Shown: piece by piece, positions 2,447 to 41,166 of the stretch
Position numbering within the stretch: the first letter of the stretch is position 1
Layout: each line of letters opens with the position of its first letter
Assembly (NCBI GenBank): GCA_032718475.1
Contig: JAUCBJ010005838.1
Location: 1-43,249, forward strand
DNA length: 43,249 bases
Direction: 5' to 3'
DNA from: Nemertoderma westbladi
Lineage: Eukaryota; Animalia; Xenacoelomorpha
Position numbers and translations under genes: made by a program
The notes under the pieces: generated by a model
The model's database searches: none
Told to the model about the DNA's origin: nothing
What the model saw: only the letters and a program-made list of their open reading frames with translations

Positions 2447-2645
2447 TTCAGCAAAGAAGAGCAAACCTATTTCGTATTTTTAACGACACGTGTAAACTAC
2501 CGAACCGCTACCCCTACCCCAGCTGTAAATTTAGTTCTGTTATCAGTATCAGTACAGCAGTAGGCCTACCCCTACAGTATATTACATAAATTAAGATGAA
2601 CCATTAACTTAATTAATTAGGTATATTAACTAGGCCTATTTCATA

Positions 2646-10814: not shown

Positions 10815-11081
10815 TGTGAGCGGATTCAATTCCGCCTCACATAACCCCCATAAAGTAGGGAAGTGGCGCCTTTAAGCAATATTGGGGAGTACGAGGTTGA
10901 TTACAATCAACCTCGTATCACCCCCAATAATGCAGACAACACACGGCCCCAAAGAGCCACAGAAAAGAGGTTATAGGTCAAATCTCTTGGGAGAGGGAAA
11001 GTAGCAGCAGCGGGGGGGAAGCACTCCCACAGAGGTGGAGGCGAGAAGTGGGATAACAACCAATGGGAGAGGAGAGCATCC
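10815..11081 (+). repeat. Element B 5' LTR, left part
   Basis: Matches 32312-32578; interrupted at CATCC by element A. Confidence 0.92.
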
Positions 11082-12688
11082 TGTTCGCGGTATTTCAACT
11101 TTCCATAACGCGAGTTGAATATTTTTGTATTTATTTAAAATTGATTATTCCGATATTACTACTGGGTGCGGGACCATGGGTTTTGGGCACATTCAATAAA
11201 CTGGGGGCGATTTATGGGCGAACTTTGGGGCAACTTACAGGGTACGGGAATAATTTCATAGTTATAAGGGCCAGGGGGGATGGAAAATGCAAGCAGTATT
11301 CAGGTTAGCCTGAGTACTATTAGGCCCTGGCCAACTTCCTGCTGCCTGTAGGGGTGGATTTGGTAATGCGCCAGGCCTAAAGGACAAGGACTGCCCTTAG
11401 CGGTCCCTGGCCAACGGCAGCTACTACGAGACTGAAAAGAACTCGGAACGCTGACTGCTTGTGTCAGGGATTTGCGACGGGCACCGACGGCCCCTTAGTA
11501 GCCAAGCCGTTCTGGTTCTCGATGATCGAACCCCGGGGTTCGTGAGGGGTGGAGCGGACACGCGAACAGGTGGCCAACTAACGACTGCCCCCTGACCTAA
11601 GCCGTACTGGTTCTCGATGACCGATCCCTTCGGGGTTCGTGAGGGGTGGGACGGACATGCGAAAGGGCTGGCCACAGGACTGGTTTGACAAGGACTGCCC
11701 TTAGCGGTCTCGGGTCAACGGCAGCTACTACGAGCCTGAAAAGAACTCGGAACGCTGACTGCTTGACTGGGATTTGCGACGGGAACCGACGACAGACCCC
11801 TTAGCCAAGCCGTTCTGGTTCTCGATGATCGTTCCCTTCGGGGTTCGTGAGGGGTGGAGCGGACACGCGACGGGGTCGAAAGACAAAGGACTAGACTCGA
11901 CTAGACTCTACCGGCCTACCGACTGTTCGGAGCAGTTTCTCGGCTGCCGAAGCGACTACGAGCCTGAAACGGACTCGGAAAGCCTAGGTGGTTGGGTTTC
12001 TGTGATGAACTGACGGACCCCTAGCCAAGCCGTTCTGGTTCTCGATGATCGAACCCTTCGGGGTTCGTGAGGGGTGGAACGGACACGCGAACGGGTCCAC
12101 CGACACGACAGACTCCTAGCCAAGCCGTACTGGTTCTCGATGACCGAACCCTTCGGGGTTCGAGAGGGGTGGTACGGATACGCGACAGAGTCTACCGACT
12201 GGACCGACCCTTAGCCAAGCCGTGCTGGTTCTCGATGATCGTTCCCTTCGGGGTTCGTGAGGGGTGGAACGGACACGCGACAGGGTCGACCGACACCGAC
12301 ACTACGGCACTAAGACTGGGACTGAGGGAAAATCTGAGGAACATTAGGTAGGCTAAAATTCTGAGCGAACAGTGGGTTATTAAATAATATACCGTAGGGA
12401 TTTATATTATCGTGTATAATTATTGTGAATATTTGGTGTATATTGATTTGGGGAAGCCCAAAATTATTCTTAATCAGGGTTCAATATTGTTGACAAGGTT
12501 CAACAGAGTTCAGTTACATTAAAGAGTATATCCAACTAATGCAGCTTTTTCTCAACCGCAACCCTGCATCTCAGAAATCATTCCTTCTCCACAATCAATA
12601 TCCGGTGACTGGCCGGGGCTCGGTGGTCTGTTAAGTCACGTCTCCAGCATCGGCGTTTTTCCCCCCTGGTGTAGGAATAACGGCAACA
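11082..12688 (+). repeat. Element A 5' LTR
   Basis: Direct repeat of 23886-25492. Confidence 0.95.
11386..12292 (+). repeat. Array of structured repeats inside the LTR (six ~85-nt K-turn-like modules, three GNRA hairpins, two CTGCC/GGCAG hairpins); duplicated at 24190-25096
   Basis: Core AAGCCGTTCTGGTTCTCGATGATCGAACCCTTCGGGGTTCGTGAGGGGTGGAACGGACACGCGA near 11504, 11599, 11807, 12027, 12122 and 12217. Confidence 0.9.
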
Positions 12689-12690
12689 AA

Positions 12691-12703
12691 ATTAAGAATA
12701 ATT
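12691..12703 (+). promoter_or_regulatory. Non-tRNA primer-binding-site candidate (self-complementary to the LTR)
   Basis: ATTAAGAATAATT, 2 nt after the LTR end, is the exact reverse complement of LTR 12462-12474. No TGG-initiated tRNA PBS at this position. Confidence 0.55.
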
Positions 12704-12942
12704 AATGCGGTTAATTTTGACACGGTGTCAAAATTAAGAATAATTATCGTGGTCAACTTCAACTGGTGGAAGTTGAGAATCCTTCAATACTCTTCAAAAA
12801 CTCTCTACGTGCTTGCCAGCACCCACTACGAGGAAACTCTGGTATTTGAGTTGAGACAAAGTCGTGGTTTAATTAATCAGCAAACTCGATCTAACCAACT
12901 CGTAGTCGGCAGATCACATATTTGGAGAGTTGTTAACAGGGA

Positions 12943-13134
12943 ATGGAAGTATCGATCACACCCATTGATATAATTCAAGTTGAGCCAGGAATCTGGCACG
13001 TCGAAGTTGAGGTACAAGGAACGAACGTCGGACGATTCAGGATTACTGTTCGGGTGGTTCAAGCTGAGTACAATACCTACGAGGAACTGTTTTACGACAT
13101 CGCGTATCTCGCCATCGACGAGGCGTTACAATGA
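12943..13134 (+). CDS. Small acidic 63-aa ORF upstream of gag, stop overlapping the gag start (ATGA)
   Basis: ATG at 12943; TGA at 13132-13134 overlaps the gag ATG at 13131-13133. Confidence 0.4.
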   Translation: MEVSITPIDIIQVEPGIWHVEVEVQGTNVGRFRITVRVVQAEYNTYEELFYDIAYLAIDEALQ

Positions 13135-16100
13135 CAACAAATAACGTATCCGATACCGACGAGATGGATCACCACACAGACTCGGAAGCCGACGAGGTAC
13201 CAAACGTCAAAAACATGACCCGTCGGTTAGGGGCTCTTAAAGGCGGAGTAACCCGAGCGTATCAACGGATGGAGAAACAACTCAAGGGAGTCAAAACCCC
13301 CCTCAATGAGGTACAAACTCAGCTTCAAAGTATCCGAAATATCCTACAGCGGTACGAAAGAATGATACAGGCGTACCAAGAGCTCGTTCCCCCCACCGAT
13401 CTGGAAAACTACCCCAAGCTGGAAGAACACGTTGTACATTAGATGGGTTCCGCAAACAACACCGGAGGACCCTCAGCCTTGTGAGAGGCTATGAGGAACA
13501 GTATTACAAGAGGGCTGAAAGAACAGACGCGGAATCAGTACGATCCTCCAGCATCAGGACAGGAGTACATCGCAAGAGAATGGGGTCCACCAGAAATCAG
13601 CACTCCAGCGCTAGGAGCGAGATATCCGGCTCAGCGTGCAGTTCTCAAGGGGCGCCGCCACTCCGAGACCAACTGCGAGAGCGGAAGGCATTAGCCCTCA
13701 AAGCTCGGATGGAAGATGAGTATATTCAACTGCAAGCCGAGCAAGATGTATTAGCTGCAGAAACCCAAAGGCGAGAGGCCGAACAAGCGGCCGAACGGCA
13801 GGCCGAACAACGTGAACAGGAAGCCGAACAACGCAGGCGAGAGGACGAACAACGCAAACGAGAGGACGAACGACAGGCCGAACAACGCAGGCGAGAAGAC
13901 GAACAACGCAAACACGAGGACGAACGACAGGCCGAACAGCGCAAACACGAGGCCGAACAACGCAAACACGAGGACGAACGACAGGCCGAACAGCGCAAAC
14001 ACGAGGCCGAACAACGCAAACAGGAGGCCGAACAACGCGGACGAGAGGCCGAACGGGAGATCGAACAACGTAAATGGGAAGCAGAAATGCGTAAACAACA
14101 CGCCGAGGCCCAAGCAATTCTCATCCACAAAAAGAACGCGGATATTGCAAAACTCGCGGAATACGAAGCCGCACTTATAGAACGAGATATTCAACTCTAC
14201 GAGGACTGGGAGAGGGATATAGATCAGGAATATGAACCAATCCCGGTACCGGAATTAGAAAAGTCATTTATACCGACAGCGGCGAAACTTCCGAAACCCG
14301 AAATCCCGCCTACCAAACAGTCTACGCTATCGGCACAAGCACCGGTGTTCCATCCACCACCGGCGACGCTAAAGAACGAGGAACCTTATTTCCCATCCAA
14401 CACCACGACAGCGAGTGTACCCAAGTACGAGCCTGAAAAGGACTCGGAACGGGACGCCACTCCCCGATCAAACAACCCATTTACATCAACACCACAAACT
14501 CGTAGCCGCGTCATTATTAAAACTCCGCCTATCATTGATCCATCAAGTATGGGAGTGAGTGCCAATAACTATAACCCTCCGAGTCACTCCAGTTCAGACG
14601 ACGTCAGCATCATCCGGGCGTTGGAGAACCGCCTTGCCATGCCGAAGATGGAGATTCGCACCTTCGAAGGAGATCCCGTCGATTACCTCAGATTCAAGAA
14701 ACGGTTCTTTGCGCAGATTGGATCAACGGACATAGCCGACGCACAGAAATTGGTATATTTATCGCAATACCTGGGTGACAAACCCCGCAGAATTGTTGCA
14801 TGTTTTGAAGGAGGTTCTCATGAGGCATACTATGACGCATGGAAAACTCTAGACAAAAGATACGGAAATACCGGAACTATAATTAATAAAACTCTAGAGA
14901 GACTGATACAGGATGCAGGATCACTAGGGGACCCACAGAACATACAGGAATTCTCCGACTCTATGAAAGATGCCTATTATACTCTGAAGCCCTTAAATAA
15001 GGAGGACCAGGTGAACAACATTCTAAACCTCCGACAGATCGCCCGGAAGTTCCCCGGATGGCTACAAAGTAAGTGGGCTTATAAATGTGTAGATCTCCGG
15101 CGCAGACATCCAGATCGAGATCCTAGCTTCCTTGAAATGTCGGCATTCCTGGACGATATCTCCGAAGCCATGAATGACTCGATGTTTTCAAAACAAAGTC
15201 TCGCAAAGTTGGACGGAATAGAGAGCAACTCTAGGAGTAAGATAACCCCTCCGAAACCAAGATTCCGCCCCCCACCGGTAAGTACGATGGCCATCACCAT
15301 GGCTGAGGATTCCGACGACGAAGACTACGAGGAACCGACATCCGCCAAGGAATGGGCATGTTATCTCGCGAATTGGGCCCCCGAAAGGGAAGGCGTCACA
15401 AATTCCCTACTCTGTCTCTTCTGTGGGGAGAAACATAAAGTGGAATTCTGCAGGAAGTTTCAGTTCGCCGAACTCGTCCCACGTTTCGAGGCGATAATGA
15501 AACACCGAGGATGCTTCCGGTGTCTTGGAACAGGTCACTACGTTCGGGATTGCGACCAAAGGTCGTGCTGTGCTGTCTGTAACGACCAACGCCATCACAC
15601 GCTCCTCCACATCCCCGCGAACTTCGACTTTACTACCCTCCCCTTTCGGATCGAAGCCAGGCGAAGAGGAGAAACAAACCACGTCTTCAAAGGAACCCGG
15701 ACAACCCAACGGAGAGAAACCAACCCGTTTAAAATCTCCACCGCTACACCACAAGTAACAAATATTTCGGCCACGATTAATCTTATAAATCGCCGCTACA
15801 TGGTTTTCGCAAAGGTAATCCCAGTAAGGATCCAAGGAGTCGGCAAATCTTTGACGACACTCGCATTCCTCGATAACGGGTCCGACGGAACCATCATCGA
15901 CCGGGATTTTCTCGAGCAACTCGGCCTAGAATATGAGCCTTGTAAACGGCCCATACAAACCATCACCGATAACAGAGAGGTAGAGTCCGGGGAGGTGCAA
16001 CTCCAGATGGAAGGAGTGATGAAGGGCTACGAAACGGCTAAGTTAACCATAAAGAACGCCTTGGTACACACAGACCTCCGGGTGCGGTTCCGACAATCAG

Positions 16101-19100
16101 CCGAGTACGCCCCCCTCATACAATTGGACCGGGACGATGTAGACCTGAGGTGTCCGCAGTTGGACGTAAACCGTATCACCCTACTGATCGGACTTGATAC
16201 ACCGGAACTACACATCCCCACCGGAGATATCGCCCGATCTATAAACCAGGATGACGGATTTTATGCTGAACGAACAATAATGGGATGGACACTCTGCGGC
16301 ATTAAGGAGGAAACCACGGACACCTATACCTACCTTCCCAAATGTCAGATTAAAGAGAATGTAACCTCCGTGGGTTACTGCTCAGCTTCGGATCTCGACG
16401 AGGATTTGTTTCTGGAAACCGAGAAAACCCAACGAGAGATGACGAAATATTTTAATTTGGAGACCCAGGAGTTCGCGGAAAAGGACGAAAATCCATCCGA
16501 AGAGGACCAATATTGTATGGACGTTCTCGACCAGGCCACGTTTAAAGACGGACACTGGAGTTCACCTATGTTATGGAAGGACCCAAACAAACCAATGGCA
16601 AACAACGCCAGCATGGCACTTAGGCGACTTAAAGGGATTCTACGCCGGTTGAATGACCAACCCGAGATAAAGGAGAAGTATAACACCGTAATCCAAGGAT
16701 ATCTCGATGATGGATTAGCAGAAATGGTACCACGGAACGAACTGCAAGGTGGTAAAAGAACATATTATCTCCCGACCCACTATGTAGTAGAAGCCCGCAA
16801 AGGTGGGAAAATCCGAGTGGTAAATGATGCTGCCGCTATATACCAGGGCGAATCCCTAAACAGTCAACTTTATACGGGACCCAACATATATAGCACACTC
16901 ATCGGCGTATTGATCAGGTTCAGGGAAAACCGGGTAGCATTCACCTGTGACATCAAGGCCATGTTTCATCAAGTTCGTACATTACCAAGAGACTCGGACT
17001 GTCTACGTATCCTATGGACGGATAAAACGCTTACTCAACAGGAGATTAGCCAACTCACGATAAAGGACGTAGACATAATGCGTATGGTCGTCAGGATCTT
17101 CGGCGCTAAGGACTCGCCGGTAGCATGCAGTGACATGCTAAAGAGGACGGCAACCAATTGCGAAAACGAGTTCCCTCCAACCGTCATAGAAACCATTCGA
17201 CGATGCTTCTACGTGGACGACGGATGCGCTGGCGCGGATAATGTAGATGAGGCGTATCAGCTAGCAATGGGGATGGTAGAATGTCTAAAGAAAGGAGGGT
17301 TCCCACTCGTGAAGTTCAGATCCCACGACAAAACACTTATGGAAAAGTTTCCGGAGGATATCCGGCTGGAAAATAACAAGATGTATTCGGAGGATGTGGA
17401 ACATCGTGTACTCGGGATTGAATGGGACATAGAATCAGATGAATTCATCTTCAAATATAAACCCCTACCCAAGCCTATGACAAAAAGGGGATGTTTGTCG
17501 ATAAAAAGTGCAATCTTCGACCCACTAAATTTCATATCTCCAGTAACCTTGGCCGGAATGAACCTGATTAAGGAAATGTGGATAGAAGGACTGGGATGGG
17601 ACGAAGAGCTTCCCCCATACCTTAGCGTCAAATGGAGAAAATGGACGGAGCAACTCGAACACCTACATCTTATGCGGATACCTAGACCGTTCTTCCTCGA
17701 TAAACTGCCCACCGATATCTTCCAGCTCCACACCTTTTCGGATGCTTCAAATACCGGAATCGGCGTAGTAACCTTCTTACGGAGACTAAGTAGCGATGGA
17801 AACGGCGATACAAGCTTCTTATTCTCCAAAGCAAAGACGGTATCCGGGGAATTCGTAGCAACGATTCCGAGACTCGAGCTACAAGCTGCAGTTTGGGCAG
17901 TAAGACAGAATCGCATGGCCATGCGGAACCTACGGATCCCCATAGAATCTCAACACTTCTGGGTAGATTCGAGTATAGTTCTCTATTATCTCCACTCTCC
18001 ATCACGGCGTCACACCACGTTTGTTGCAAACCGAGCCACAGAGATTAAACAGTGTACCGGCCGAGAACAGTGGCATCACGTAAACGGGAAGGAAAACCCA
18101 GCGGACTAATCAAGCCGAGGCGCCACCCCAAAACAACTCGGTAAAAGTAAACTCTGGCTTACAGGCCCGGAATTCCTACGGCAGCCACAGTTAACATGGA
18201 GTACCCGATTCGACCCCGAACTCGATAGCGGAAAATACTCCGAGGACGATAAAGAGATTCGTAAAATCCATCGAAGCAACGCGGTGGAAATTTATAGTTG
18301 CCTGACTGAGCCTGCAAAGGACTCGGGCAGGCACTATAACGTCGCGACGATCACTCAACTAGCGACGTCTTTACATCGGTTGATCGAGCGAACTTCATCC
18401 ATGAGACGGCTCGTCCACCATGTTATAACCCTTCGCAACTTCCTACGGTGGAAAAACAACAAACCGATAGTTCAACGGAATATACAAGAACTCATTATCG
18501 CGGAGAAGTGTATTGTTAGATATGTCCAGAAAGAAAGTTTCCCCGATGAATGGGAACAACTTAGTGCGGGCAAAACGTTGAAACCGGACAGCCCAGTCTA
18601 CCAACTAAGACCAATGATGGGAGAGGACGGACTGATCCGACTGAATACCCGGATGGCAAACGCCCCGGTCGAATATGAGGTTAAATACCCGGCGCTCTGC
18701 CCGGAACGTCGACACTAGCTAAGCTATTAATTCTACAATGTCACGAGGACAACCACCACGCAGGACAGAATTGGATTATAGCTAATATAAGACAAAGATA
18801 TTGGATCACCCATATCCAGCCACTGATCCGGAAAGTGTTGAAACGTTGCTTCACCTGCAGACGTTACCTAGCGCCACCAATCACTCAAAAGATGGCCGAC
18901 TTACCAGCCACCCATCTACAAGCGGATTCCCAGCCATTCTACGTCACCGGGGTGGACTGTTTCGGACCGTTCACGGTTATTGAACGACGATCCAACATCA
19001 AATGCTGGGGAGCCATCTTCACCTGCCTGAGGTCTAGGGCAATTTACCTAGATATCGTGGTAAATCTGACACAACACGCATTCATCAACGCTCTGCGTCG

Positions 19101-19916
19101 GTTCGTGGCGAACAACGGGACATGCCACCACATGTATTCCGATAATGGTACAAACTTTGTGGGAGGAGAAAGGGAACTCAGAGAGGCGATCGAGGGATGG
19201 TTTACCGATAACACACCGCATCCCAAGTCTGGAAGGAACACCAGATACAGTGGCACTTCCAGACCCCCTTAGCCCCCCATACGAGCGGGGTATGGGAGAA
19301 ACTGATCGACCTCGTGAAACGATCCATGCGCGTCGCTCTAGGCGATACCCGGGTAACCCATGATACCCTCCGCACAACATTCTGCGAGATCACGGCTACC
19401 CTGAACAACCGACCTATTGTCCCTATCCGCGACGACCCCACAGACCTGGAGCCCCTCACTCCTAACCACCTACTGGGGAGACCCAAAACCCACGTTCTCC
19501 CGGAAACCATGTTCCCGGATCCCAACGAGATCGCGAAGCATACAAACTGGAAAAAGGCCCAAGCGTTGGCAGCGCATTGGTGGAGAATTTGGGCCCAGGA
19601 ATATCTCATAACCCTCCGGACCAGGAGAAAATGGAACAACACCTACCGGAACGTCGCAGTTGGCGACATGGTACTAGTTAAAGAAGATCTCAAAGACCGC
19701 GTTCACTGGCCTGTGGCGCGGGTCGTGACCATACACCCAAGTAAAGACGGACTTGCGAGGACTGTGACGATACGAACGGCAAAGGGCCACTACCAACGCC
19801 CTATCCAGAAGCTGTGCCTTCTTGAAGGCAATGACAGTGGTGATTCTACGAGAGGTGATAAGATCCCTACTCAAGATCCTGCTGTGGACATTGGTGACAA
19901 TTACAAATCTGTGTAA
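13131..19916 (+). pseudogene. BEL/Pao gag-pol polyprotein, disrupted by frameshifts (~13439, ~18715, ~19230) and a stop (18107-18109)
   Basis: DUF1759-like PKMEIRTFEGDPVDYLRF. Zn knuckles CLFCGEKH, CFRCLGTGHYVRDC, CAVCNDQRHHTLLH. Protease FLDNGSDGT. RT RVVNDAAA, DIKAMFHQV, FYVDD. RNase H LHTFSDAS, TIPRLELQAA, NPAD. Integrase HEDNHH...CFTC, VDCFGP, SDNGTNFVG, APHTSGVWEKL. C-terminal WAQEYLITL. Confidence 0.95.
13770..14100 (+). repeat. Coding tandem repeats (EQRK/EDERQA coiled coil) in gag
   Basis: Repeated GAGGCCGAACAACGCAAAC-type units. Confidence 0.85.
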
Positions 19917-20191
19917 CCCTTCTCATCATGTTGACAAACTCTTATAAACTGTGATTTATCGACAACGAATTATGGACCCCCTTTAAACAACTGTAACCAC
20001 GCAATGGTATTTGTGTTTCCTCGTGTGTTATGTGGAGTCCAGCATCACCCTGCAGATGTTTCGACTGACGCAGGGTCGTTTATGTATTGTTTACCCTGAT
20101 TTTGGTCATCAGGACCTACGATATTGGATTATTGGAAATGGAAAAGATTTGAAGTGGAATTCATTGTATTCATTGCAGTATGTTATGTTGT

Positions 20192-20610
20192 CCGTTGCGT
20201 GCGCAGTTTGGGGCGTAGGCGGTGTAACGAGTCCAGCTGTAGATCCTGGATTGCCGCGCAACACCCCCTCTATCCCGTTATTCTGGTGGGTCCATGGTGC
20301 ATCCACATGACTTCGACGATAGAGGGTTTTATGTTTCTCAGTCGCGTTATTCTGGTGGGACCGTTACGTGGATTTTGGGGCGTAGGCGGTGTAACGAGTC
20401 CAGCTGTAGATCCCAGAATGTTGCGTAACCCCATCCCACATGACTTCGTCGACTGAGCTTTATGTTGTTGGGAGTGTTATTCTGGTGGGTCCCTGGTGCA
20501 TCCACGTGACTTCACTCCTAGCGTCTTCATTGTCCGTTACGTGCGCAGTTTGGGGCGTAGGCGGTGTAACGAGTCCAGCTGTAGATCCCAGATTGCCGCG
20601 TAACACCCCT
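20192..20610 (+). repeat. Interleaved structured repeats between pol and the accessory ORF
   Basis: Motif X TTTGGGGCGTAGGCGGTGTAACGAGTCCAGCTGTAGATCC x3 (20207, 20375, 20549). Motif Y GTTATTCTGGTGGG...CCAC[A/G]TGACTTC x3 (20277, 20346, 20476). Confidence 0.9.
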
Positions 20611-21163
20611 TCCACGACAAAGATTAACCAAAGAAAATGATTGAATATAGTTGGAAATGATGAAAAGGATCAGACAACTCTACTATAAACCTGAATGATG
20701 ACGCGTATGCTGATGAAAATGTGATGATGCGCACCCTGGTGCTGCGCTTATAACAAATGATGATAGCCGGGGGGCTATAAACCCAATGATGATGTGGAAA
20801 TAAATAAATGTGAAATAAATGGTGGAACTAAATGTTGAAATATATGTGGAAATAAATGAAATGAAATGAAATAATAATGAAAGGAAAAAAGACAAAAAAA
20901 AGGTATAAAAGAGGTCAAAGAATATAATTGGAAAAAAAAAAAGGACAAAAAAGTCATAAAAAACTGGTTGGATATTATGTATAGCTATAGTAACTGTAAA
21001 TGCTGAATGTATTAGCAATAAGATGATAGATGCCTATATAGCAATGTTATTTAATAAACTGAATTAAATAAAAAAAAACTGAATTATTCTGCTATCGCTA
21101 TAGTTTCAGACTTTCTGGACTTATAATTAACTGAACTAATTTGTAACGGATATAATCGTAAAT

Positions 21164-23719
21164 ATGGACCCAAATCGCCAAATTATCGGCGAATTACGTA
21201 ACACGATAGATCTACTGGAATATTCGCAACCCGGATCCCCTGACTTTGATACAAATTGGAGCATTCTGCTAAATGAGAACGTATGAGAAGTTAAATTCAC
21301 CGGGCGAGAGGGACCGGATTCTAAGAATCTACGAGCCCTCCGGTTAGCCGATGCTAGTACGAGACTGAAAAGAACTCGGAACGCAAAGGCAACCGGAGGG
21401 GACGATTCGTCGTTTTGGGAAACGTTCCGGCAGAACGTCTACAGATCCCGATGTTTGATCTACGACAACGAGGGAAACGCGACGCCCACCTCGAAAGCGA
21501 TTACGTTGGCGAGATGTCAAAGTTTCGTCGACGACAAGAGTACGTACCTAGCCCACTGGGGAAACCTGTCGGAGTGTACGGCGAAGCTTCGAGAGGAACG
21601 CGTATCGATTATCCAAAACCGCGACGACTACCAGGAAAAGTACGGGGCGAAAGAATACGGTCGATCCTTAGTCGTCGTCCTCGGAACCCTGGACGGTTTG
21701 GTACTGGTGTGCCGAATATTCCCGACACCCAGACAGGAAGTGCAGGCAGCCGGAGCGATCTGGTTGCTGCCTCCGGAAATCCAAAAGATCCTCTTCGACT
21801 TCGACGTCATTAAAATCGGGTCGGATATCAAGGCGGACGTCCGGAACGACTACGCGAACGCTCCCGCAGGAAGAAACCGACGAAACGACCTCAACGCACT
21901 TAGCCATTGCATCGACACTCAAACGCTGCTAGCCTGGTTACGATTCGCCGAGTTCATGCGAGGATTCCAAGAAGTGAGACCGACGAAATCCGGGATCGGC
22001 TACCTCGCTGTGCTCAACGGCGGTATCGACTTCAAACCCCAGAAATTCCGGGACTATAATAAAATATACGGCGGATACCCGGGATTAGAGATAAAGAGCG
22101 AGCGAGAGGGTCGATGGAAGGACGTCGATCGGAAGTGGACGATACACCAAAGGTGGGAGAATCCCGATCGACGGAGCTATATCTACGTCGTTATGGAATG
22201 CTACACCGTCGCTAAGTTTATCTGTAAAACTCTCGATAACCTTATTACGGCGGTCCCCCTTTCCTTCGTCGACTACGACTGGAACGAGGTTATAAACCAC
22301 GCGTTTAAAGCGGTCGAGAACATTACACCGGGAGAATCAAAAACGCCCGCCGTTATTGATTCCTGGGACGAGAGCGGACCTTACGACATCCCTACGATTA
22401 CCGAACTTCTCGGTGCGGAGGAGCCTCTGATCTCCTCGGAAGGGGAAGAGATATGGCTAAACGAGGGTGTTCTACTCTCCACCCCGAAGCGACAACTCGA
22501 GCCGGAGGCCGCGTACGGACCGGCCGCCAAACGGGTCGCCTCGGCCGAACCGATGAAGAGAGCAGGCGTCTACACCCCACGCGGCTCCGGTAGCCCCGCG
22601 AGAGAGGTAGCCACTACGGCTGCATTGAGCGACTTCGGCGACATATGCCAACGGTTATCCCCGTATCCTTTCCCGGGCGGCGAAGATTGGTTGTCGGAGA
22701 TTCCGAGTACCAGCCACCAACGGACCCGCTCAGCGATACTGGTCGAGGAAGGCCCCAGCGATGCGCCGACACCCGACGATCTCCTCGGTATCCCTCCGTC
22801 GAAAACCCCGGCACCTCTTCGCCGACCAGCGGTGGCTACTACACCCGCCGTTCCTCAGGACCCTATGCGACTAACCCGTTGGTACGCCGAGCAAACTGAA
22901 TGGATCCACCGCCAGAAACGGTCATCCGAGTTGAGACCAGCGGGACACAAAGAGGGTTATCGGAGCGAGAACATACTACGCAAAAGCCTAGCATTCCGCG
23001 GGCTACCGACCACCGAGAATATTCCGAAGAGCGACCGACGACTCGAATACTACGTCGGCGTCCCGATTCCGATATTCCCCGGTCGAGAAACGCAGTTGGA
23101 GGTATGCGGCGACTGCGGCTCGGAGCAGTGCCCACGCGGCAGAAGGAATCGGGTTACCGATTCTTGCCTCCAGCTCCTCGGGATACTCTATTGCCCATAC
23201 TGCGCGATATCGGGCCACGACGTTTCGGTCTGTCCGATCCTTTATAACCTCTGCACCACGTGCGGTTTCCGTGGACATTCCGCTATGGGCAATATGGTCA
23301 CGTTTGAGACATACGCAAACAGCCACTTAAAGACCAAGTTTCGGAGAAACACTCGGAATATCGCGCAGGAGATGGCGTGCGGATATTTCTCCTTCCCGGA
23401 ACGCCTCCACACGTCGGCCTCGCTACCCTTCCATTACGTGGATCTGCTACTGAGCGCCGGATTATTCGGTCCATTCGAAGTTATTAGACGATTATACTCG
23501 TATAAAGAGGAGTTCGGTGACGGAGAATGGTTCCTAGAGGCACGCAACTCCGAGTTGGAAAGACGAACCGACATGATCCCGATGCCTTCGAAAGGAAGAG
23601 CCGCCAGGAGATAAGCCGAAGCGTTACTCACAATGGATGTTGACGCTCCTCTACCAGCCATAGCGATCGATGAGAGTCGACGGGCGAAGAGACGAAAGGC
23701 GTACCAGAAAAAGAAATAA
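21164..23719 (+). CDS. Accessory ORF of element A: DEDDy-type 3'-5' exonuclease, disordered linker, CCHC zinc knuckles and basic tail; in-frame stops at 21284 and 23612
   Basis: ATG 21164 is in frame with the 719-aa ORF. ExoI-like IYDNEG. WRN/EXD-like LLPPEIQKILFDFDVIKIGSDIKADV (ExoII), CIDTQ, KSGIGYLA and WENPDRRSYIYVVMECY (ExoIII-like). CPYCAISGHDVSVC and CTTCGFRGH. Reading through 23612 adds ...RRAKRRKAYQKKK. Confidence 0.75.
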
Positions 23720-23885
23720 TGGATTGGGATATTCCAGGAACATTTATCGAACATTTATTTTTATACAAACTCTAGGCCAAATTAATTAAAAACTATGCAA
23801 TATTAAATTTGTGATTTTTTATATTGGGAATGACCTACGCAAACTCAATCGACCGACAGACTTCACGAAGGTCATTGGGGGGGAC

Positions 23886-25492
23886 TGTTCGCGGTATTTC
23901 AACTTTCCATAACGCGAGTTGAATATTTTTGTATTTATTTAAAATTGATTATTCCGATATTACTACTGGGTGCGGGACCATGGGTTTTGGGCACATTCAA
24001 TAAACTGGGGGCGATTTATGGGCGAACTTTGGGGCAACTTACAGGGTACGGGAATAATTTCATAGTTATAAGGGCCAGGGGGGATGGAAAATGCAAGCAG
24101 TATTCAGGTTAGCCTGAGTACTATTAGGCCCTGGCCAACTTCCTGCTGCCTGTAGGGGTGGATTTGGTAATGCGCCAGGCCTAAAGGACAAGGACTGCCC
24201 TTAGCGGTCCCTGGCCAACGGCAGCTACTACGAGACTGAAAAGAACTCGGAACGCTGACTGCTTGTGTCAGGGATTTGCGACGGGCACCGACGGCCCCTT
24301 AGTAGCCAAGCCGTTCTGGTTCTCGATGATCGAACCCCGGGGTTCGTGAGGGGTGGAGCGGACACGCGAACAGGTGGCCAACTAACGACTGCCCCCTGAC
24401 CTAAGCCGTACTGGTTCTCGATGACCGATCCCTTCGGGGTTCGTGAGGGGTGGGACGGACATGCGAAAGGGCTGGCCACAGGACTGGTTTGACAAGGACT
24501 GCCCTTAGCGGTCTCGGGTCAACGGCAGCTACTACGAGCCTGAAAAGAACTCGGAACGCTGACTGCTTGACTGGGATTTGCGACGGGAACCGACGACAGA
24601 CCCCTTAGCCAAGCCATTCTGGTTCTCGATGATCGTTCCCTTCGGGGTTCGTGAGGGGTGGAGCGGACACGCGACGGGGTCGAAAGACAAAGGACTAGAC
24701 TCGACTAGACTCTACCGGCCTACCGACTGTTCGGAGCAGTTTCTCGGCTGCCGAAGCGACTACGAGCCTGAAACGGACTCGGAAAGCCTAGGTGGTTGGG
24801 TTTCTGTGATGAACTGACGGACCCCTAGCCAAGCCGTTCTGGTTCTCGATGATCGAACCCTTCGGGGTTCGTGAGGGGTGGAACGGACACGCGAACGGGT
24901 CCACCGACACGACAGACTCCTAGCCAAGCCATACTGGTTCTCGATGACCGAACCCTTCGGGGTTCGAGAGGGGTGGTACGGATACGCGACAGAGTCTACC
25001 GACTGGACCGACCCTTAGCCAAGCCGTGCTGGTTCTCGATGATCGTTCCCTTCGGGGTTCGTGAGGGGTGGAACGGACACGCGACAGGGTCGACCGACAC
25101 CGACACTACGGCACTAAGACTGGGACTGAGGGAAAATCTGAGGAACATTAGGTAGGCTAAAATTCTGAGCGAACAGTGGGTTATTAAATAATATACCGTA
25201 GGGATTTATATTATCGTGTATAATTATTGTGAATATGTGGTGTATATTGATTTGGGGAAGCCCAAAATTATTCTTAATCAGGGTTCAATATTGTTGACAA
25301 GGTTCAACAGAGTTCAGTTACATTAAAGAGTATATCCAACTAATGCAGCTTTTTCTCAACCGCAACCCTGCATCTCAGAAATCATTCCTTCTCCACAATC
25401 AATATCCGGTGACTGGCCGGGGCTCGGTGGTCTGTTAAGTCACGTCTCCAGCATCGGCGTTTTTCCCCCCTGGTGTAGGAATAATGGCAACA
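23886..25492 (+). repeat. Element A 3' LTR
   Basis: Direct repeat of 11082-12688, preceded by a G-run PPT. Confidence 0.95.
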
Positions 25493-25497
25493 CATCC

Positions 25498-25822
25498 ACT
25501 AGGTACAGAGGCCAAGATACTGTAAGATTAGCCAATGTATATATTATATTGCATGCAGTGAAGTTATTCAGTTATTCCATTCATTAGTGCAGTTAGGTGA
25601 CATTTTCGTACCGTCACCATCATTACCGGTCAGTAGCATCTATATTACTTAACTTATCTTATTACCGTCACCCAGTCAACTGTGCTATTATATCTCATTG
25701 CCGTATATCAATCAACCTGTAACAGCATATCAATATCAGAACAACAAACTATTATCTTCTTTCACAACGAGCGGCGACGCGTAACGAAAACAAACCAGTC
25801 GGGATCCCCTGATCCCATCACA
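25498..25822 (+). repeat. Element B 5' LTR, right part (TATA-like ~25538, Inr-like TCAGTT 25568)
   Basis: Matches 32579-32903; 267+325 = 592 bp reconstitutes the LTR. Confidence 0.92.
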
Positions 25823-25887
25823 GTACGAAAATCTAGACAACTGCTAAAGCTGTGACTGCCAGCCACCAACAAAGAAAGCGTTAAAGG

Positions 25888-28800
25888 ATGAGCGAAGCCC
25901 AAAACCTAGAGGGAGAGACGACACCGTCGCTGACCCCGGACGATACCAACGAAACGATCCATGAGGCCACGACGCGACGGTATTGACCCGCAATGCCGGA
26001 CTCGCCGGAACGGGACGATCCGGTAGCCCAAGCGGGGGGCGGCCGTCTACCAGGATGAGGGAATGAGTCGACGCACAATGGTGATCGACGTACCGATGTC
26101 GCCGGCCAGCCACAGGCCGAGGGCGACGGACGGCCCACCAGAACGGCGACGGTGGGGCCGCCGGTACGACGCCAAACCAGGAGGGGAGGAGGAGAGGTCA
26201 GCGACGAGGATGTCGGAACCAGTGACCGGCTCTGATGAGCCTACAACGCAACAAAGAAACAACTCAAGGAGGCTAGAGAAGGAGTAAAGATAGATCAAGG
26301 GAAGTTGAGCCGGCGACTAGGTGAGTCGAATAAACACTTCAACTAACTAGTTCGCTTCGGGCAGGGAGAACTAGCCAGTTAGAGAGCGAGGGGGGTCGCC
26401 ACCGAACTATTTGAACTGTGGCGATCTGGGATAATGGAGCCACAGATAGTGTACATAGGGCTGTATTTAGTGGATGCTAGGGGAATTAAGTTAGTGGGTT
26501 GGGCAGACCCGCACGAGGGCGAATCCGAGATTAACCCCGAGGATTCGGTCTCGTCGGCTAGCGAGAACCCCAGAAAGCGGGGGAAAGTTAGTAGGACAGA
26601 GAGGCGACGGGAGTCCATCGCAACCGACAAGTCCGCTACATCCTCCGCAAAAGCAAGAAGGGTGTTAGAAATAGATCCGGCGTGTCAGTTGGATATGGTG
26701 GTGCTAGACCAGAAAGAGTTAGAGAGGCAGTTGGAAGAGGGAACTGCGTTGTTGGAAAGAGAGAGAGAACTGGCGAGAGAGAATAAAGAGAGGGCTGAGA
26801 GGGTCGCGAGAAACTTTAGAGAGTGTGAGGAGATATAAATAAGGGAAGGAAAGGAGCGAGAAGAGCGAGAGGCGAAAGAGGCGAGCGAACGTAAGGAGCG
26901 AGAGGCGAAAGAGGCGAGCGAAAGTAAGGAGCGAGAGGCGGAAGAGGCGAGCGAACGTAAAGAGCGAGGGGCGAGAGAGGAGAGTGAACGTAAAGAGCGA
27001 GAGGTGAGAGAGGAGAATGAACGCAAAGAGCGAGGGGCGAGAGAGGAGAATGAGCGTAAAGAGCGTGAGGCGAGAGGGGCAAGCGAGTGAAAAGAGCGTG
27101 AGGCGAGACGGCTTGAGAGGATTGCGAGAGAGGCGGAATTGGCCGAGCAGAGTTTGCGAGAGGATAGGGAGAGAGAGAGAACGGGAAAGCGTGTGCGGGA
27201 TGATATGCACGCCCGGTTGAGGGGGCTTATGCAATATCAGGCCAAACAGAAGCGCAGTTGGGGCTGTCAGAGAGTGAGGCTGGCTCGGGTAGTGTTTACG
27301 AGGAGCCAGAAGTTATGGAAACGTTTGTTATTACCCCACTTACAGGGACCGGACGACATACCCAAGACTGGTGTAACCGTACGGGCGGGGAGGGGGGGGG
27401 GGTAATAATAATACGTTAGAAAACGTTAATATTAATAGTACCGTAGTGGATAACCCTAATCAAACTTTCATTGCAGCAAATAACATTTTGCCCGGTAATA
27501 GTAATTTAAATCCGAATGATCCTAATTTAAATGTAGAAAATGATTCAAATAATCTAGATTCGAATATACAAAATAATTAAATTAATTTAAATTTAAATAC
27601 GCAAATAATCTAAATAATAATCTTACTTCAAACGAACAAAATAACCCCAATTCTAACCAAAATATACGAAATAATTTAAATAATAATCCGAATTCAGAGA
27701 ATAATTCTAATAATTTCAATAATTTCAATAATAATATTGATAACGGGGCTATTAATAATAACATGGAAGACACAGGTGGGCCGGCCAACCGAAGCCTGCA
27801 AGGCAACGTAGTTAGTACGCAGGGAGTAGCGGGGGTGAGTGACCCCGACGGGAGCCTGCAAGGCCACGTAGTTAGGCAGGGAGTAGCGGGGGTAAGTCAA
27901 CCCGACGGAAGCCTGACAGGCTACGCAGTTGCACAGGGAGAGGTGGGGGTGAGTAGAACCAGCCGCAGTAGAGACAGTGCGTCGACTAGAGAGGGGTGTA
28001 GAAGCGAAGTAGGAGGTAGTGAAGTTAGAAGTGGCGAGTGGGGGGGGGGGGGGGCTACGGGCGCCCCACCACGGAAGATTAGTGGCGAGAGAGGGGGAGC
28101 AGAGAATGGAGCAGAGTCAGTGGGGTCGAACTCCGGGAGATTGCCGTCGCCCTGGAGAGACACACCGCACGCCGAGAGAGGGGTACAGAATGTACCGATA
28201 CGAAGACGAGAACAGGAGAGGGGATCGAAGAGAAACTTCCCGATGGGATATAGCTGCCGATCGAGAGTACGGTAGTCGCAGGGAGATTCGAGATTCGAGA
28301 AGATTAAACTTCGGTTCGGGAAGGGCACATGCAGACTGCAGGACATGCTGTAGGACTTACTGCACATACTATTATAGGCCATGCTGGGAGAGATAGTGTG
28401 GCGATAGGGTAGCGCGAACGACGGGATTAGATCCGGGAGTCGCGGAGTACATGCCAGTAGGTAGGCAAGAAGTGGATAGGCTTATATCGGTACCAGCACA
28501 GCAGCATGACTATAATATGCAGGGACATAACATATATCCAGGGGAGGGGAGAGTTATTGCAGATAGATGTATGGGCCCCAATATATTAACATCAACCCCA
28601 GTACCAAACATACCGATGGGGGGGGGGGGGGGGGGACAGGGTGACATTCCCCCATTACATTATCAACAATACACTCAAACAGGAATAAGAACATCGAATC
28701 CCCTGGATGAGGACAGGTCGTGCGACACGGAAATATGGAGGGGGCCGCTACCCCCAATGATATATCCGAGACAGAGAGAGTCAACAGGCCCGATGGGCGG

Positions 28801-31146
28801 ACCGCACCCAACAGGAGAATCTGTACAGCATCCCTCGAACCCATTGGAAGCACAGGCAATGGGAATGGCGGCACTAATTGATGCACTAAAGACCAGGATC
28901 GAGTTACCACCAGTCGAGCCATTTAAATTCGACGGAAGTAGGCCGGAAGAATACCTGCAATTTCGGCGCATGTACAGCAATGAAATATTGACAAAGAACC
29001 TGACGCAGGCGGAGTGCCTAAAATATTTAAAGGTATATACAGGAGGCCAAGCAAGCGTACGACATCGTGAGGCAGTATCAGGGCATCGAGGGCGGCTTCA
29101 CGACTGCATGTAGGGCCCTAGACAGGGAATACGGACACCCAGCCAAGATCATCCGGCAAACCCTGAGGGGTATAACATCGGGTGGCCTACAGGATAACCT
29201 TGTCAGCATAAAGACGTTTGTGAACAAAGTCGAGAAGGCGTTAATCATGCTGAAGACGCTAGACGCGCCATACGAACTCAACGCATCTAATAACATCACC
29301 ACGATAGCGCAGGCACTGCCGATCTGGCTGCAGAGCAAGTGGAGGAAGATCGCCTTCTCCACACGGGAGAAGAAAGGTGCGGAGCCAGGGCTAGAGGAAA
29401 TGTCAAACTTCCTCAACTACGAAGCAGAGTTGATCACAGACCCAGTCTAGTGAGGATAGTTTGGGGAAGGCGCCAAAGACCGAATACAACAGGCCTAAAC
29501 CCGAACATAATCCTGCAGATCCATTCCCGAGAGTAAGACAGTTGCTACCACACGCGGCCACACAGGGGGCTACAAGCCCACAGTTAGCTGGGAGTAGGGC
29601 CACACCGTGGCAGGGACAGAAAGAAAATAACAACACAAATAAGCATAATCCCAACATACCCAGTAGGCCGAGTCCAGATAACCAAAACACTAAATCGGTA
29701 GATATAAACCTACGCGCGATACGTGAGGGACTATACAGGGAACGCTATAATCCAGGATTCGAATGTCAATTACATCAGGACGGAACCCATAAGACCATGA
29801 GTTGTAAGCACTGGCAAGCGTTGCCCAAACAAGATCATATAGCCTACACAGACGCAAACGGACTATGTCATCATTGTGTGGTAGAAGGACACAGATCCGG
29901 AGAGTGTAGAGAAACAGCAATCGGAGACGATGAGACTGGAGGCCAAACAATGGCTACAAGCACCACAGGAGTAAGGAAAAAGAGGAAAGTACTACTCGGG
30001 GTAGTACCAGTGAAGATATCAGGAAAGGGCGGTCGATCAGTAACGACATTAATGCTGGTCGACAGCGGAGCAGCCTTCACGCTGGTGGAGAATTGGGTGG
30101 CCGAAGAGATAGGGCTAAAGACGAGGCCGAATAGGATGGCGGTAACTACCGTCTCAAGTAAGGATGAGGTCCTGGAGATGAGGACGGGGCGGTGCAAGAT
30201 AGCAGCGATAGCACCGGGATGCGATTATGGGGCGACGATCGACCCCATCCACGTGATAGAATCGATAAATATCAACGCCAGGCGACCAACCAACATTGAA
30301 GTCGAACAATATAGATTCCTGGACAGTATCGATTTCTCAATACCAGAGGTGGACGTTAGGAAGGTATCCATTATAGTAGGAATGGACTGCCCGACGGCCC
30401 ACGAGAGAATGCAGACGGTCTTCGGCGAAGACAGACAGCGGGATCCGACGGCGATCCTCACGCCGTTCGGATGGACGCTTAGCGGCCCAGTTAAAACCAA
30501 GATTCCATCCAGGGTGACAGAGACATCAGGGTGCATGTTACCAGGCACCGTAGACGCAGAGGACGAAGAGAAGAAACCGGAGATGGTAGATGAGCCAGAC
30601 GGGGAAGTAACAGTAGGAGAGTGGGCGGAGGAGAATGGATTTGACGTGGAAGACTTAGAGGCAATGAGATGGAACAAGGGTCCCAGCAAGTATTGGTATG
30701 GGGATGGAGAGGAGCAGACGGCTAGATGTCCGGAGGACAACCCGGAGGAGCGGACGGCGAGATGTCCGGAGGACAACAGTCTGGGGGAGTGTCCGGAGGA
30801 GTGTTCGGAGGAGTGTCCGGAGGAGTGTCCAGAGGAGTGTCCGGAAGAGACGCCGGTCCGGTTGAAAGGCATACCGACAAGGGGGAGGTCGAGTAAGAAG
30901 ACAGGATGGAAAGGGATAGGATTACTATTGTCCGTTCTGTTTTATCTATTCTTCCGATTTCTTTTCATTCTACCGCCAGGAGACGATCAGATGAAGGGTG
31001 GCATTTTACTGCCAGGAAATGAGGAAATTAAGAAGGCGGCTGAGAGACCCGACTTTAGGGTGGCAGAAGAGGGAGAAGCAATTCCTAGAGGATTGGAATT
31101 GGCGAAGAGAGGGTGGCGAAGAATAAGAGGACGTATAGGGGGGTAG
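25888..31146 (+). pseudogene. Element B gag-protease remnant, multiple frameshifts and stops, no RT/RH/IN
   Basis: INPEDSVSS, ERE-rich coil, DUF1759-like IELPPVEPFKFDGSRPEEYLQF, WLQSKW, knuckle CHHCVVEGHRSGEC, protease MLVDSGAAFT, PTAILTPFGWTLSGP. Confidence 0.85.
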
Positions 31147-31249
31147 TGGGAGAGTGCCTACTGGAAGAAGGGGCACCTTAGAGTTTAGTCGTCCAATATT
31201 TTGGACTGAGGGGGGTGGGAATGAGGGCGAGACGCCCTTCCCATGCACA

Positions 31250-32060
31250 AAATAATTATTTAAATAAAATAATAAAAATAATTAAATAATTAAATAAGAA
31301 GAAAGTTAGGAAGTAATAGTTAGTAGAAGATAGTAAGTAGAAAGTTAGAAGTATGAAAGTTAGTAGAAGATAGTAAGAAGTTAGTAGTCAGATAGTTAGT
31401 AGTTAGAAGATAGTAAGTAGTAGTCAGAAAATTAGTTAGAAAGTTAGTATGAAGATAGAAGTCGGCGGGTATAGGGAGTGTGGTATATAGACATACCACG
31501 GGAGTAGAGGGGTACGTGGTACAGTTAGAAGTCGGCGGGTAAGGGAGTGCGGTATATTAACATGCCACGAGTAGTAGTAGAGGGGTTGTGGGCACCGTAA
31601 GCGGCACGTAGAAAGTAGTAGTAGAGTGGTTGTGGGCACCGAAAGCACCACGTAGATGGAGGTAGTAACAGAGTGGTTGTGGGCACCAAAAGCGCCACGT
31701 AGTTAGAAGTGTTGGTAGAGTTAGAGAGTTCTAGTTAGGAGTTAGAGAGTTAACAGAGTTAGGAGTTAGTTAGAGTTAGTAGAGTTAAGAGTTAGTTAAA
31801 GTTAGTAGAGTTAGAGAGCTAGTTAGAGTTAGTAGTAAGTAGTAAGTAAGTAAGTAGTAAGAGAGTTAGATAGTGAAGAAGTAAGTAAGTAGATAGAATG
31901 ATAGCACAGGGGTAACATAAGAGATTTAGCACCTTTGAATGCGAGAGAGAGTGCAGACGAGTGCGATCAAGGTGTGGGGAGAGAGCAGACTGGAGTTAGA
32001 GTGGAGCAGAGAGAGATTAAGATAGAGTTAGAGTGAGAAGTTAGAGTTTGAGTGAGAGAG
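31250..32060 (+). repeat. Strand-biased low-complexity (AGTT/AGTA/AG) tract with embedded short repeats in the 3' region of element B
   Basis: Long C-poor runs; GGTTGTGGGCACC...CACGTAG x3; GAAGTCGGCGGGTA...GGTATA x2. Confidence 0.85.
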
Positions 32061-32311
32061 CTTTTAAAAATTGTGTGAGAGAAATCCACAATTGTCTCAA
32101 ACCGAGACGCCAGATGTCTTGGTGCAACATAGGTTGCTTTTGCACCAAGAAGGGGTAGTAACATCATACCCAGAGGGAGCGGCCTGGAAAGCCGACTCCA
32201 AGTAAGAAAACTCCACCCCACACCCGATAGTAGATCGGGTTCCAGCAGAATTGAAGCGCACTCATAGAGGTTGATGCTATCTTCTCACCGGGAAGATAGC
32301 ATGGAGGGGAG

Positions 32312-32903
32312 TGTGAGCGGATTCAATTCCGCCTCACATAACCCCCATAAAGTTGGGAAGTGGCGCCTTTAAGCAATATTGGGGAGTACGAGGTTGATTA
32401 CAGACAACCTCGTATCACCCCCAATAACGGGGACAACACACAGCCCCAAAGAGCCACACAAAAGAGGTTATAGGTCAAACCTCTTGGGAGAGGGAAAGTA
32501 ACAGCAGCGGGGGGGAAGCACTCCCACAGAGGTGGAGGCGAGAAGTGGGATAACAACCAATGGGAGAGGAGAGCATCCACTAGGTACAGAGGCCAAGATA
32601 CTGTAAGATTAGCCAATGTATATATTATATTGCATGCAGTGAAGTTATTCAGTTATTCCATTCATTAGTGCAGTTAGGTGACATTTTCGTTCCGTCACCG
32701 TCATTACCGGTCAGTAGCATCTATATTACTTAACTTATCTTATTACCGTCACCCAGTCAACTGTGCTATTATATCTCATTGCCGTATATCAATCAACCTG
32801 TAACAGCATATCAATATCAGAACAACAAACTATTATCTTCTTTCACAACGAGCGGCGACGCGTAACGAAAACAAACCGGTCGGGATCCCCTGATCCCGTC
32901 ACA
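32312..32903 (+). repeat. Element B 3' LTR
   Basis: TGTGAG...GTCACA, preceded by the PPT at 32303-32311. Confidence 0.93.
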
Positions 32904-33351
32904 CTCGCCGCAACGTCCAGACGGGCCTCCGGGTCTACCGATCTCAGATCTCAGGCGGAATGACTCGCCCTCGATCGGCTGGAGATGGGGTTCCACCTCG
33001 ACGTCATGTGCGACCTCGCTGAGGATTGGATAGGCTCCCATAGGGCAGTGAAGGGAGTGGGAGATGGTGAATACAGCACCACAGGAGCAGTTGGCGGGCA
33101 GCCTCGGGGGCTCCCACCCAAATCGCAGACACAACGCATCCCAGAAAGCGGATTTGTGTAGGGAAAAGTTGTATCTGGAAATGGGTAGGGCCAAGAGCCA
33201 TGCCGATGCTCCACGCTCCTTCGCCAGTGTCCGATGGTAGAGGGCGTCTCCGGACAGTTGAGCATCAACCGCCGCACATCGAGTCTTCACAGCCTCATCC
33301 TGCTCCTTCGGATCTCACGCAGGATGGTCTGCTGTGTTGTACGAGTGGCTG

Positions 33352-38620: not shown

Positions 38621-40093
38621 CTAAATGATGGCATAAAATTCCTTTATTCGTTTCAGTTTTTCCCGCAATGTTAGCGATTGGAGGTCGAAGCAGGCCGCAA
38701 TGAAATCAGCGTTCCCAATATCTGTGAAGGTCGGCGCGCCCATAACCATCCGGTTTAAGATGGAGTCCTTCGCGTAGCGGTATATTAGAATGGACTCGAG
38801 CCGTGGTAGAGGGTGCTCGGTGGAGGCCGCTCTGTAGCCGCCGAGAACCCCTGGGTAGGAGCCTCTCCCCCGTCTCCCGGACAGGCTGGCGATTGCCAGG
38901 GATGCAAACGCGCTCTGGAGGGCTTTGTTGGGGCACTCGTTGTACCGCACGAGTGTACCAACCGATAGCCGGAAAGCCTCCAGCGAGATGGGTTTCAGCT
39001 GGGTTAGGTGGTAGAGTGTTGAGTTCCCAATGTACGGTCCAACACACAGCAGACTCCTGAGGGCGTTCCTGTAAACCACGTCGAGTTTTCCCAATTCAGT
39101 TTGAGTGAACGCCCCGATGTTGAGTTTCAATGAGTACAGGGCAGCCGGTAGAGCGACGGCGCGCCACAGGTTGGCAACGGTCGCCGCCGGCAGCCACCGG
39201 GTCGTCCAGCCCTTCGCCTGGAACATCCGTGCGAGGGCGATTATCTTCTGGGCCGAGGCGCCCATAGGGTTGGTCTGCGACTGGGCCAGGTTATAGCCGA
39301 GGAAGGTCCAGGATTTACTGCGCGGGAACAGCGGTTTGCCAAGCCGGAGGAAGGACGGTTGGTGTCAATTCCTTTGGTTTGAAAATACCGTCCACTTAAT
39401 TTTACTAGATTCGACCGACAGTTTTATATCATTGGCGGACTTGCTGAAGACCATAAATAGAGTTTCCATATCTTTTGGATTGTTCGTCATTAGCAAGAAA
39501 TCGTCCGCATATGATATGGCTCCCAACCATATTGAATTGATTGTATACCCTACATGGGATTCCTCTAGGTTGTCCAGTATGCTTCTTGTGTACAGGTTGA
39601 ATAGGATCGGTGATAACAAGGATCCCTGTTTAACGCCTCGTCGAACAGAGATTCCGTCACGATCGATCAGGCCGTCGAACTTTAGGTACAAGGTGCTGGC
39701 CATGTAGTAATTGAGCACGGTGGCGACGATGTGAGGGTTAACGAACTCCATCATCTTCCGACCCAATGTATCATAGTCCACGGAGTCGAACGCAGCCTCT
39801 ATGTCTAGCTGGCAGATGTACAATTGGGACCCTCTCACTAAGTTACTCTCAATGCTTTCCAGAACTGTAGCTATGGCGATGTCGCACCCAATCCTGCTGC
39901 GATACGCTGTCTGATTGTCGTGTAGTTTTATACCGCCCAGAAACTCTGCAAGTATCACCCGCTCAAAGACCTTTGCCCAGATGCTAATCGAGGCAATTGG
40001 TCTGTATGACCCTGTACAAAATAGATCCCGCTGTTTTCCTTTGTACAGACTCGAGATTACTGAGTTGCCAAACAGCGTCGGTACTTGTTTCAG
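38621..40093 (-). pseudogene. 5'-truncated non-LTR retrotransposon RT fragment (APE-type LINE, clade uncertain)
   Basis: SYRPIASISIWAKVFERVI, QTAYR, LDIEAAFDSV, GVKQGSLLSPILFNLY, AISYADD. Frameshift near 39350; C-terminal LPAALYS...YRNALRSLL. Confidence 0.85.
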
Positions 40094-40258
40094 TATACAT
40101 TATACAAATATATCATCTTATATGTAATTTATATTTTCTGGAATGCCCTTCCCTTATATTGTTATATATATTTTATTATTTATTATAGATAATCTATAAT
40201 TATAGTTTCGTTGAATTACACCTACTGTATTATACAAGACAATTTTATATTACAGTAG

Positions 40259-41108: not shown

Positions 41109-41166
41109 TACAGTAGTCCATTCGACATTAATTTAGATGCATTTGGCAATGAATCCTTGGAGCCAT

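Follow-up and report, generated by a model that had tools for sequence, protein, structure and literature searches.

The window, i.e., the whole analysed stretch of 43,249 nt of animal-type DNA, contains two LTR retrotransposons on the plus strand, one nested in the other, with element A inside element B. Element B extends over positions 10815-32903 and is flanked by a target site duplication with one mismatch (TTCGC at 10810-10814, CTCGC at 32904-32908). The LTR length of 592 bp given in the original prediction holds for the uninterrupted 3' LTR (32312-32903), while the 5' LTR is split into a left part (10815-11081), which starts with TGT and ends where element A was inserted, and a right part (25498-25822), which ends with CACA. 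The left part differs from its 3' LTR counterpart (32312-32578) at 10 of 267 nt (96% identity) and the right part at four positions (99%). Element A (11082-25492) is a BEL/Pao element with LTRs at 11082-12688 and 23886-25492 and with the target duplication CATCC at 11077-11081 and 25493-25497. Because its LTRs diverge less, at 4 of 1607 positions against 14 of 592 in B, A is younger than B. Elsewhere in the window lie a 314-aa ORF with a 2OG-Fe(II) oxygenase domain (2634-3578; Pfam E-value 2e-9), two minus-strand remnants of a reverse transcriptase (RT) of the non-LTR type (8045-9929, with an endonuclease piece, and 38621-40099), and nested inverted repeats around a 46-nt tandem array (40102-41558) that resemble a foldback or MITE element. 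No tRNA was found in the window.

Element A carries the Pfam domains DUF1759, Peptidase_A17, Integrase_H2C2 and DUF5641 of BEL/Pao elements; the RT, RNase H and integrase are of the BEL/Pao type, and its pol is interrupted by a stop and frameshifts. Between pol and the 3' LTR there is a 775-aa ORF (21287-23614) without a Pfam match and with a cysteine-rich C-terminal part, which has a short DNA repeat in common with the LTR of A. Tandem repeats of 95 nt and longer in U3 (11383-12300 and 24187-25105) account for the LTR length of 1607 bp.

The coding remnants of element B (28397-31146) comprise gag in several frames and a zinc-knuckle/aspartic protease ORF (29434-31146, Pfam Asp_protease_2), and a polypurine tract (PPT), GGAGGGGAG, adjoins the 3' LTR at 32303-32311. 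The polyprotein of A matched B in tblastn only in gag (33%, E-value 2e-11) and protease (24%, E-value 2e-13), and the protease ORF of B matched 48 of the 80 BEL loci described below, themselves the best of 530 confirmed (best E-value 6e-18). No RT, RNase H or integrase was detected in B by Pfam or by tblastn with the proteins of A, and no YxDD motif in the frames scanned; B is therefore a non-autonomous BEL/Pao derivative and cannot be placed on an RT tree. From the BEL/Pao characters it has the TG..CA LTR ends, the 5-bp target duplication, the PPT and gag/protease, and it lacks the Pol-type RT/RNase H/integrase and the 18-nt primer-binding site (PBS) complementary to a tRNA 3' end. A database search with the protease region, a weak test, gave no match among 1357 longer candidates, and no relative was found among 120 candidate viral contigs. 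Behind the protease ORF, AG-rich short repeats (31146-32300) occupy the place where pol would be.

Directly behind the end of the 5' LTR of element B (..CACA, 25822), at the primer-binding position and with no spacer, stands GTACGAAAAT (25823-25832). As originally observed, it is over 10 nt the exact reverse complement of ATTTTCGTAC (25602-25611) in the LTR, and the duplex has a predicted energy of -9.7 kcal/mol. The predicted cut of this primer-like segment, after 25611 (AC followed by C), lies 211 nt before the LTR end. The lack of a TGG-type PBS was also borne out, with no TGG found within 78 nt behind the LTR. A published working criterion for self-primers asks for at least 10 nt complementary to the element's own LTR, 0-5 nt behind the 5' LTR (PMC6317226), and B has such a match at offset 0.

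When the right part of the 5' LTR was shuffled with its dinucleotide content kept, a 10-nt match at offset 0 arose in 3 of 5000 sequences, and in 5 of 5000 with offsets 0-3 allowed. The chance first estimated at about 6e-4 was reproduced by an empirical count, in which 22 of 41,682 10-mers of the window (5e-4) have their complement in the two LTR halves. The match in B is beyond chance. The view that it is a coincidence, or that a single inverted duplication produced it in this copy, can point to a match of 10 nt only that was found post hoc and to the 3' LTR copy (32683-32692), where the mismatch already described is a T at 32691; measured against the 3' LTR alone, the site reaches 8 nt, which 138 of 5000 shuffles equal. 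We regard this view as highly improbable, given the rate of 3 in 5000 shuffles, the agreement of B with a GT/AC rule and a distance range learned from other families, and the location of both sites in stretches common to the subfamilies of B without a listed variant. Two spliced alternatives were discarded: the best splice-built match for B is 6 nt against 10 contiguous, and a 14-nt match obtained by removing 25503 to 25601 has a piece that ends with AC, not AG, and involves positions 25834-25836, which vary among subfamilies.

Further copies of the B family were collected from Logan contigs of three DNA runs of the same organism (X1, X2 and X3, from two studies); runs X4 and X5, with one partial contig each, were left out. 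The family is present in the three runs as many diverged subfamilies, which have the stretches of about 25586-25621 and 25790-25822 in common, and diverged contigs start to align at 25538. The variant table contains no other letter at 25602-25611 or 25823-25830 and the flanks are variable, with both sites located near stretch ends, where divergent contigs may be clipped. Since the T of 32691 is absent from the contig variants, it looks private to this copy. Among the loose ends, two changes would offset each other, one in the LTR at the position of 25603 (X1) and one behind the LTR at 25831 (X2, X3), and they are not linked on one contig. The further helix proposed between GCAGTT and AACTGC is present in B and is not credited with conservation, because 25593 and 25595 differ in many contigs and 25834-25839 vary among subfamilies. 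The original prediction had named, as evidence that would count against it, other B copies with a normal tRNA PBS or a match that is not conserved; neither was encountered in these contigs, and among the loose ends shown there is no post-LTR start with TGG.

The primer-like segment lies, as first described, just downstream of a TATA/TCAGTT arrangement. The predicted core promoter (25538-25573) consists of a TATA-like run from 25538 and an Inr-like TCAGTT at 25568-25573, with a TATA at -32 from the Inr A and a predicted start at 25570, and a similar spacing is seen in the relative L042. Judged from these motifs, transcription would start 32 nt upstream of the primer segment. The segment itself falls in the 11-nt loop of a 6-bp hairpin, GGTGAC/GTCACC (25596-25618, -8.6 kcal/mol), whose edges coincide, as seen post hoc, with the edges of conservation, the subfamilies differing at 25595 and 25619 and the loose ends beginning behind 25618. 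A second hairpin, GGGATC/GATCCC in U5 (25801-25816), lies just before the LTR end, occurs in most folds and has the highest subfamily-contig depth.

The local hairpin at 25596-25618 competes with the long-range 10-bp pairing, for which the predicted pair probability ranges from 0.93 to 0.00 depending on the fragment folded (0.93 for 25567-25860, 0.09 for 25567-26000 and 0.01 for 25591-25860). Dominance of the pairing for some fragment ends only counts against a stable cis fold, and the folding energy of the B region is no better than that of shuffles (z -0.78). The instability in longer fragments would suit a primer supplied in trans, whether by the other genome in the particle, by a short LTR transcript or one from a solo LTR, or by an LTR-derived small RNA, as would the contigs, in which LTR ends are far commoner than LTR-leader joints. 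We nevertheless consider such a supply improbable, as the precedent of Tf1 is a fold within the element's own RNA (PMC7175516).

In element A, a contiguous match of 13 nt was found between the LTR segment 12462-12474, whose 3' end lies 214 nt before the LTR end, and the post-LTR site 12691-12703, and it was equalled in 2 of 5000 shuffles; the spliced alternative (offset 5) is shorter, with 11 nt. The leader of A (12687-12747) also contains a second copy of the post-LTR site, in an 18-nt repeat near 12730-12747, overlapped by a 13-bp perfect hairpin (about 12711-12737). With this hairpin, the predicted probability of primer pairing falls from 0.98 to about 0.25, and the hairpin may for this reason act as a switch. 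The LTRs of A and B are dissimilar, as had been claimed, with no similarity of their ends above that of shuffles (best local match 9 nt). The geometry of the two elements is similar, and the claim that it is the same does not extend to the details, since A has 13 nt, a 2-nt spacer and a site starting with AT, and B has 10 nt, no spacer and a site starting with GT. The two can be called independent cases in the sense of different families; otherwise shared ancestry is the simpler reading. The near-equal distances to the LTR end (214 and 211 nt) were dismissed as a special feature, because relatives span 71-257 nt.

Metagenome contigs were scanned with a BEL/Pao Pol alignment, and the best 80 of 530 confirmed loci, with 36-41% identity to A, were analysed. 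Terminal repeats were present in 35 of the 80, and the 3' end of the LTR could be fixed in 14 loci where the copies diverge; after removal of L021, a twin of L019, 13 families remained. Many loci have accession series in common, and the hosts may be few. In 11 of the 13 families, a site 0-4 nt behind the LTR pairs over 10-14 nt with the family's own LTR. Nine of them (L010, L011, L019, L023, L027, L032, L035, L048 and L071) reach 10-14 nt only across a predicted GT-AG intron of 71-164 nt, with 0-2 of 150 shuffles each doing so, and the donor is GTAAG in eight of the nine even though any GT was allowed. L064 and L077 have contiguous matches of 10-11 nt (0 of 150 shuffles). The site starts with GT in all 11 families, with any start allowed; the partner therefore ends with AC, and the next base is C or T (11/11). 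Partners lie 71-234 nt from the LTR end in the 11 families and 86-257 nt in the contiguous relatives, where, as in B, AC is followed by C. B follows the rule of its relatives, with GT at offset 0, AC followed by C, and a distance of 211 nt from the LTR end. TGG-type sites occur in L020, the single such case among the 13, and in L025. In L073, the 3' LTR offers no match of 10 nt, and each of the two LTR copies retains, as judged by eye, half of the pattern seen in the related L019.

A match that exists solely across the joint of a splice has to function at the RNA level, and a family-specific site that is matched to its own LTR, stands at the primer position and is mostly completed by a predicted splice speaks for an RNA duplex from which minus-strand synthesis is primed. 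The family specificity bears on a further possibility, namely that B is primed by a tRNA half or by a fragment from inside a tRNA, with the LTR match of secondary importance. Half-tRNA primers without TGG are known from Ty1/copia lineages (PMC6317226); a tRNA primer, however, would keep the site constant across families, whereas each site matches its own LTR and not those of the others, 10 nt being reached in 5 of 182 cross-pairs. We judge tRNA-derived priming of B quite improbable.

In a blind scan, run on the 57 loci whose upstream sequence was long enough, matches were found in 28, against a shuffle mean of 9.5. Examples picked from it by eye and not counted are the contiguous L039, L042, L046 and L056 and the AT-type L051. 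The latter (LTR end 2754) is of the spliced type and has the site ATTA and a partner in which TAAT is followed by C, exactly as in element A, i.e., an AT variant of the GT rule. A fixed distance from TATA to primer was not found across families, as a TATA-like word was present up to 110 nt upstream in 5 of 20 relatives, at mixed distances. L048 and L041, the two families with a recognisable PPT in which the primer site lacks a spacer, also lack one between the PPT and the 3' LTR, unlike the other 13 loci scored, and are possibly families with untrimmed cDNA ends. The correlation between the two spacers was not significant (rho 0.38, p 0.16, 15 loci), and a comparison of zero with non-zero spacers yielded p 0.03, a value for which L079 had been scored on a wrong second PPT match.

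These spacers and positions also matter for the explanation that the pairing has a structural role, as a helix of the R leader in packaging, dimerisation or the control of translation, and that another RNA primes. Long-range helices are a feature of retroviral leaders, and in B the partner is inside the predicted transcript, in a hairpin loop that could switch. Against this explanation speak the location of the helix, which in 11 of 13 families falls exactly where a primer would bind (0-4 nt behind the LTR) and invariably has a GT start, the missing TGG in the 78 nt behind the B LTR, and the tendency of the PPT spacer to track the site spacer, which is expected if the site sets the cDNA end. 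We find a purely structural role unlikely, though not negligible.

A quick RT-RNase H tree was built from 29 labelled loci, element A and 12 database proteins. The contiguous L039, L042, L046, L056 and L077, four of which came from the blind scan, form one clade with the Esox protein P0004 (support 97). This clade is nested among spliced types and L064 stands apart from it, which suggests repeated intron loss. The TGG-type L020 and L025 are near the base of the tree, among self-complementary elements, and A is on a long branch. A FastTree of the protease region put A and B in an open cluster with L011, L020, L006 and L032. Branches are long, and neither tree places A or B with confidence. Because L020 and L025 are interspersed with the self-complementary elements in both trees, these elements do not form an exclusive clade, as had been considered in the original prediction. 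Its notion of a lineage-wide mechanism is not supported in that form, and what stands is that 11 of 13 distant families repeat the geometry, each with a sequence of its own. The putative self-priming signature is widespread, not universal, in BEL/Pao.

Taken together, element B is a non-autonomous BEL/Pao element in which the sequence at the PBS position is complementary to the element's own LTR in place of a tRNA end, and a piece of its own RNA probably serves as the primer, in the manner of Tf1. We propose that the RNA of B would start near 25570, with the TATA at -32, and that its bases at about +33 to +42 would fold across the U5 hairpin onto the primer-binding position. A nuclease would then cut after AC (25611) and free a 3'-OH; by analogy with Tf1, this could be RNase H, as part of an RT that an autonomous relative provides in trans. 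The RT would copy U5 and R back to the cut. What lies upstream of the cut in the LTR would then come from the 3' LTR copy of the RNA, and this would account for the intron that relatives retain there. For most relatives, formation of the primer would have to await splicing of the predicted LTR intron, A and B being contiguous forms, and splicing of the 3' LTR copy in the RNA could yield intron-less forms such as B. We are evenly divided about the broader proposal that a large part of BEL/Pao self-primes with a primer cut internally at a conserved AC before Y, assembled mostly by splicing and with several intron losses, that A and B belong to it, and that B presents its primer in a loop.

A close comparison is Tf1, in which the initial 11 bases of the RNA anneal to the PBS and are separated from base 12 by an RNase H cut (PMC7175516). 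Self-priming is on record for Tf1/sushi, and it has been predicted for Tcn1 and for TAR copia elements of plants (PMC6317226, PMC4600332). Like Tf1/Tf2 of Schizosaccharomyces pombe, Tj1, Tf1/sushi and Tcn1, B has no tRNA site, and the sequence behind its 5' LTR matches its own LTR (10-14 nt in these elements); in the Tf1 group, too, a U5 hairpin adjoins the site (PMC7175516, PMC4600332). The Tf1 group is Ty3/gypsy with a chromovirus-type Pol, whereas the Pol of A is BEL/Pao and the remnants of B match BEL loci. The Tf1 primer is at +1 and the B segment is predicted at about +33 to +42, and the BEL/Pao relatives differ in their GT starts (11/11) and in the predicted splice that 9 of 13 need. 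The TAR lineage (Houba, Osr-1), in which self-priming was likewise proposed from sequence with the same criterion, is Ty1/copia of plants, and the passages of PMC6317226 consulted mention no intron-built primer.

The 2021 ICTV profile of Belpaoviridae (Semotivirus) describes tRNA priming with an 18-nt PBS for host tRNA-Arg or tRNA-Gly (PMC8742986). A with its BEL/Pao Pfam set, and B with its TG..CA LTRs, 5-bp target duplication, PPT and BEL/Pao gag/protease, resemble this family, but A, B and 12 of the 13 relatives have no TGG site and B lacks RT, RNase H and integrase. B most likely works like Tf1 from outside the Tf1/sushi group, and it departs from the tRNA-PBS description of BEL/Pao. Our literature search, which covered mainly the openly available main texts, found no report of self-priming or splice-built primers in BEL/Pao. 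The terms 'PBS', 'tRNA' and 'priming' do not occur in the text of PMC3118150 and PMC554778, and the accessible parts of PMC3601003, PMC3286476, PMC8220671 and PMC13524379 do not report BEL/Pao self-priming.

If the proposed priming is true, BEL/Pao would be the third superfamily with a self-primer, after Ty3/gypsy with the Tf1 group and one predicted lineage of Ty1/copia, and its elements would be freed from tRNA supply and from control by tRNA fragments. It would also explain the failed PBS searches on many BEL/Pao elements and provide a simple rule for the annotation of LTR ends. The GT/AC rule predicts an exact cut site in B, after 25611. The splice-built form, for which the literature searched held no precedent, would couple the onset of reverse transcription to splicing by the host.
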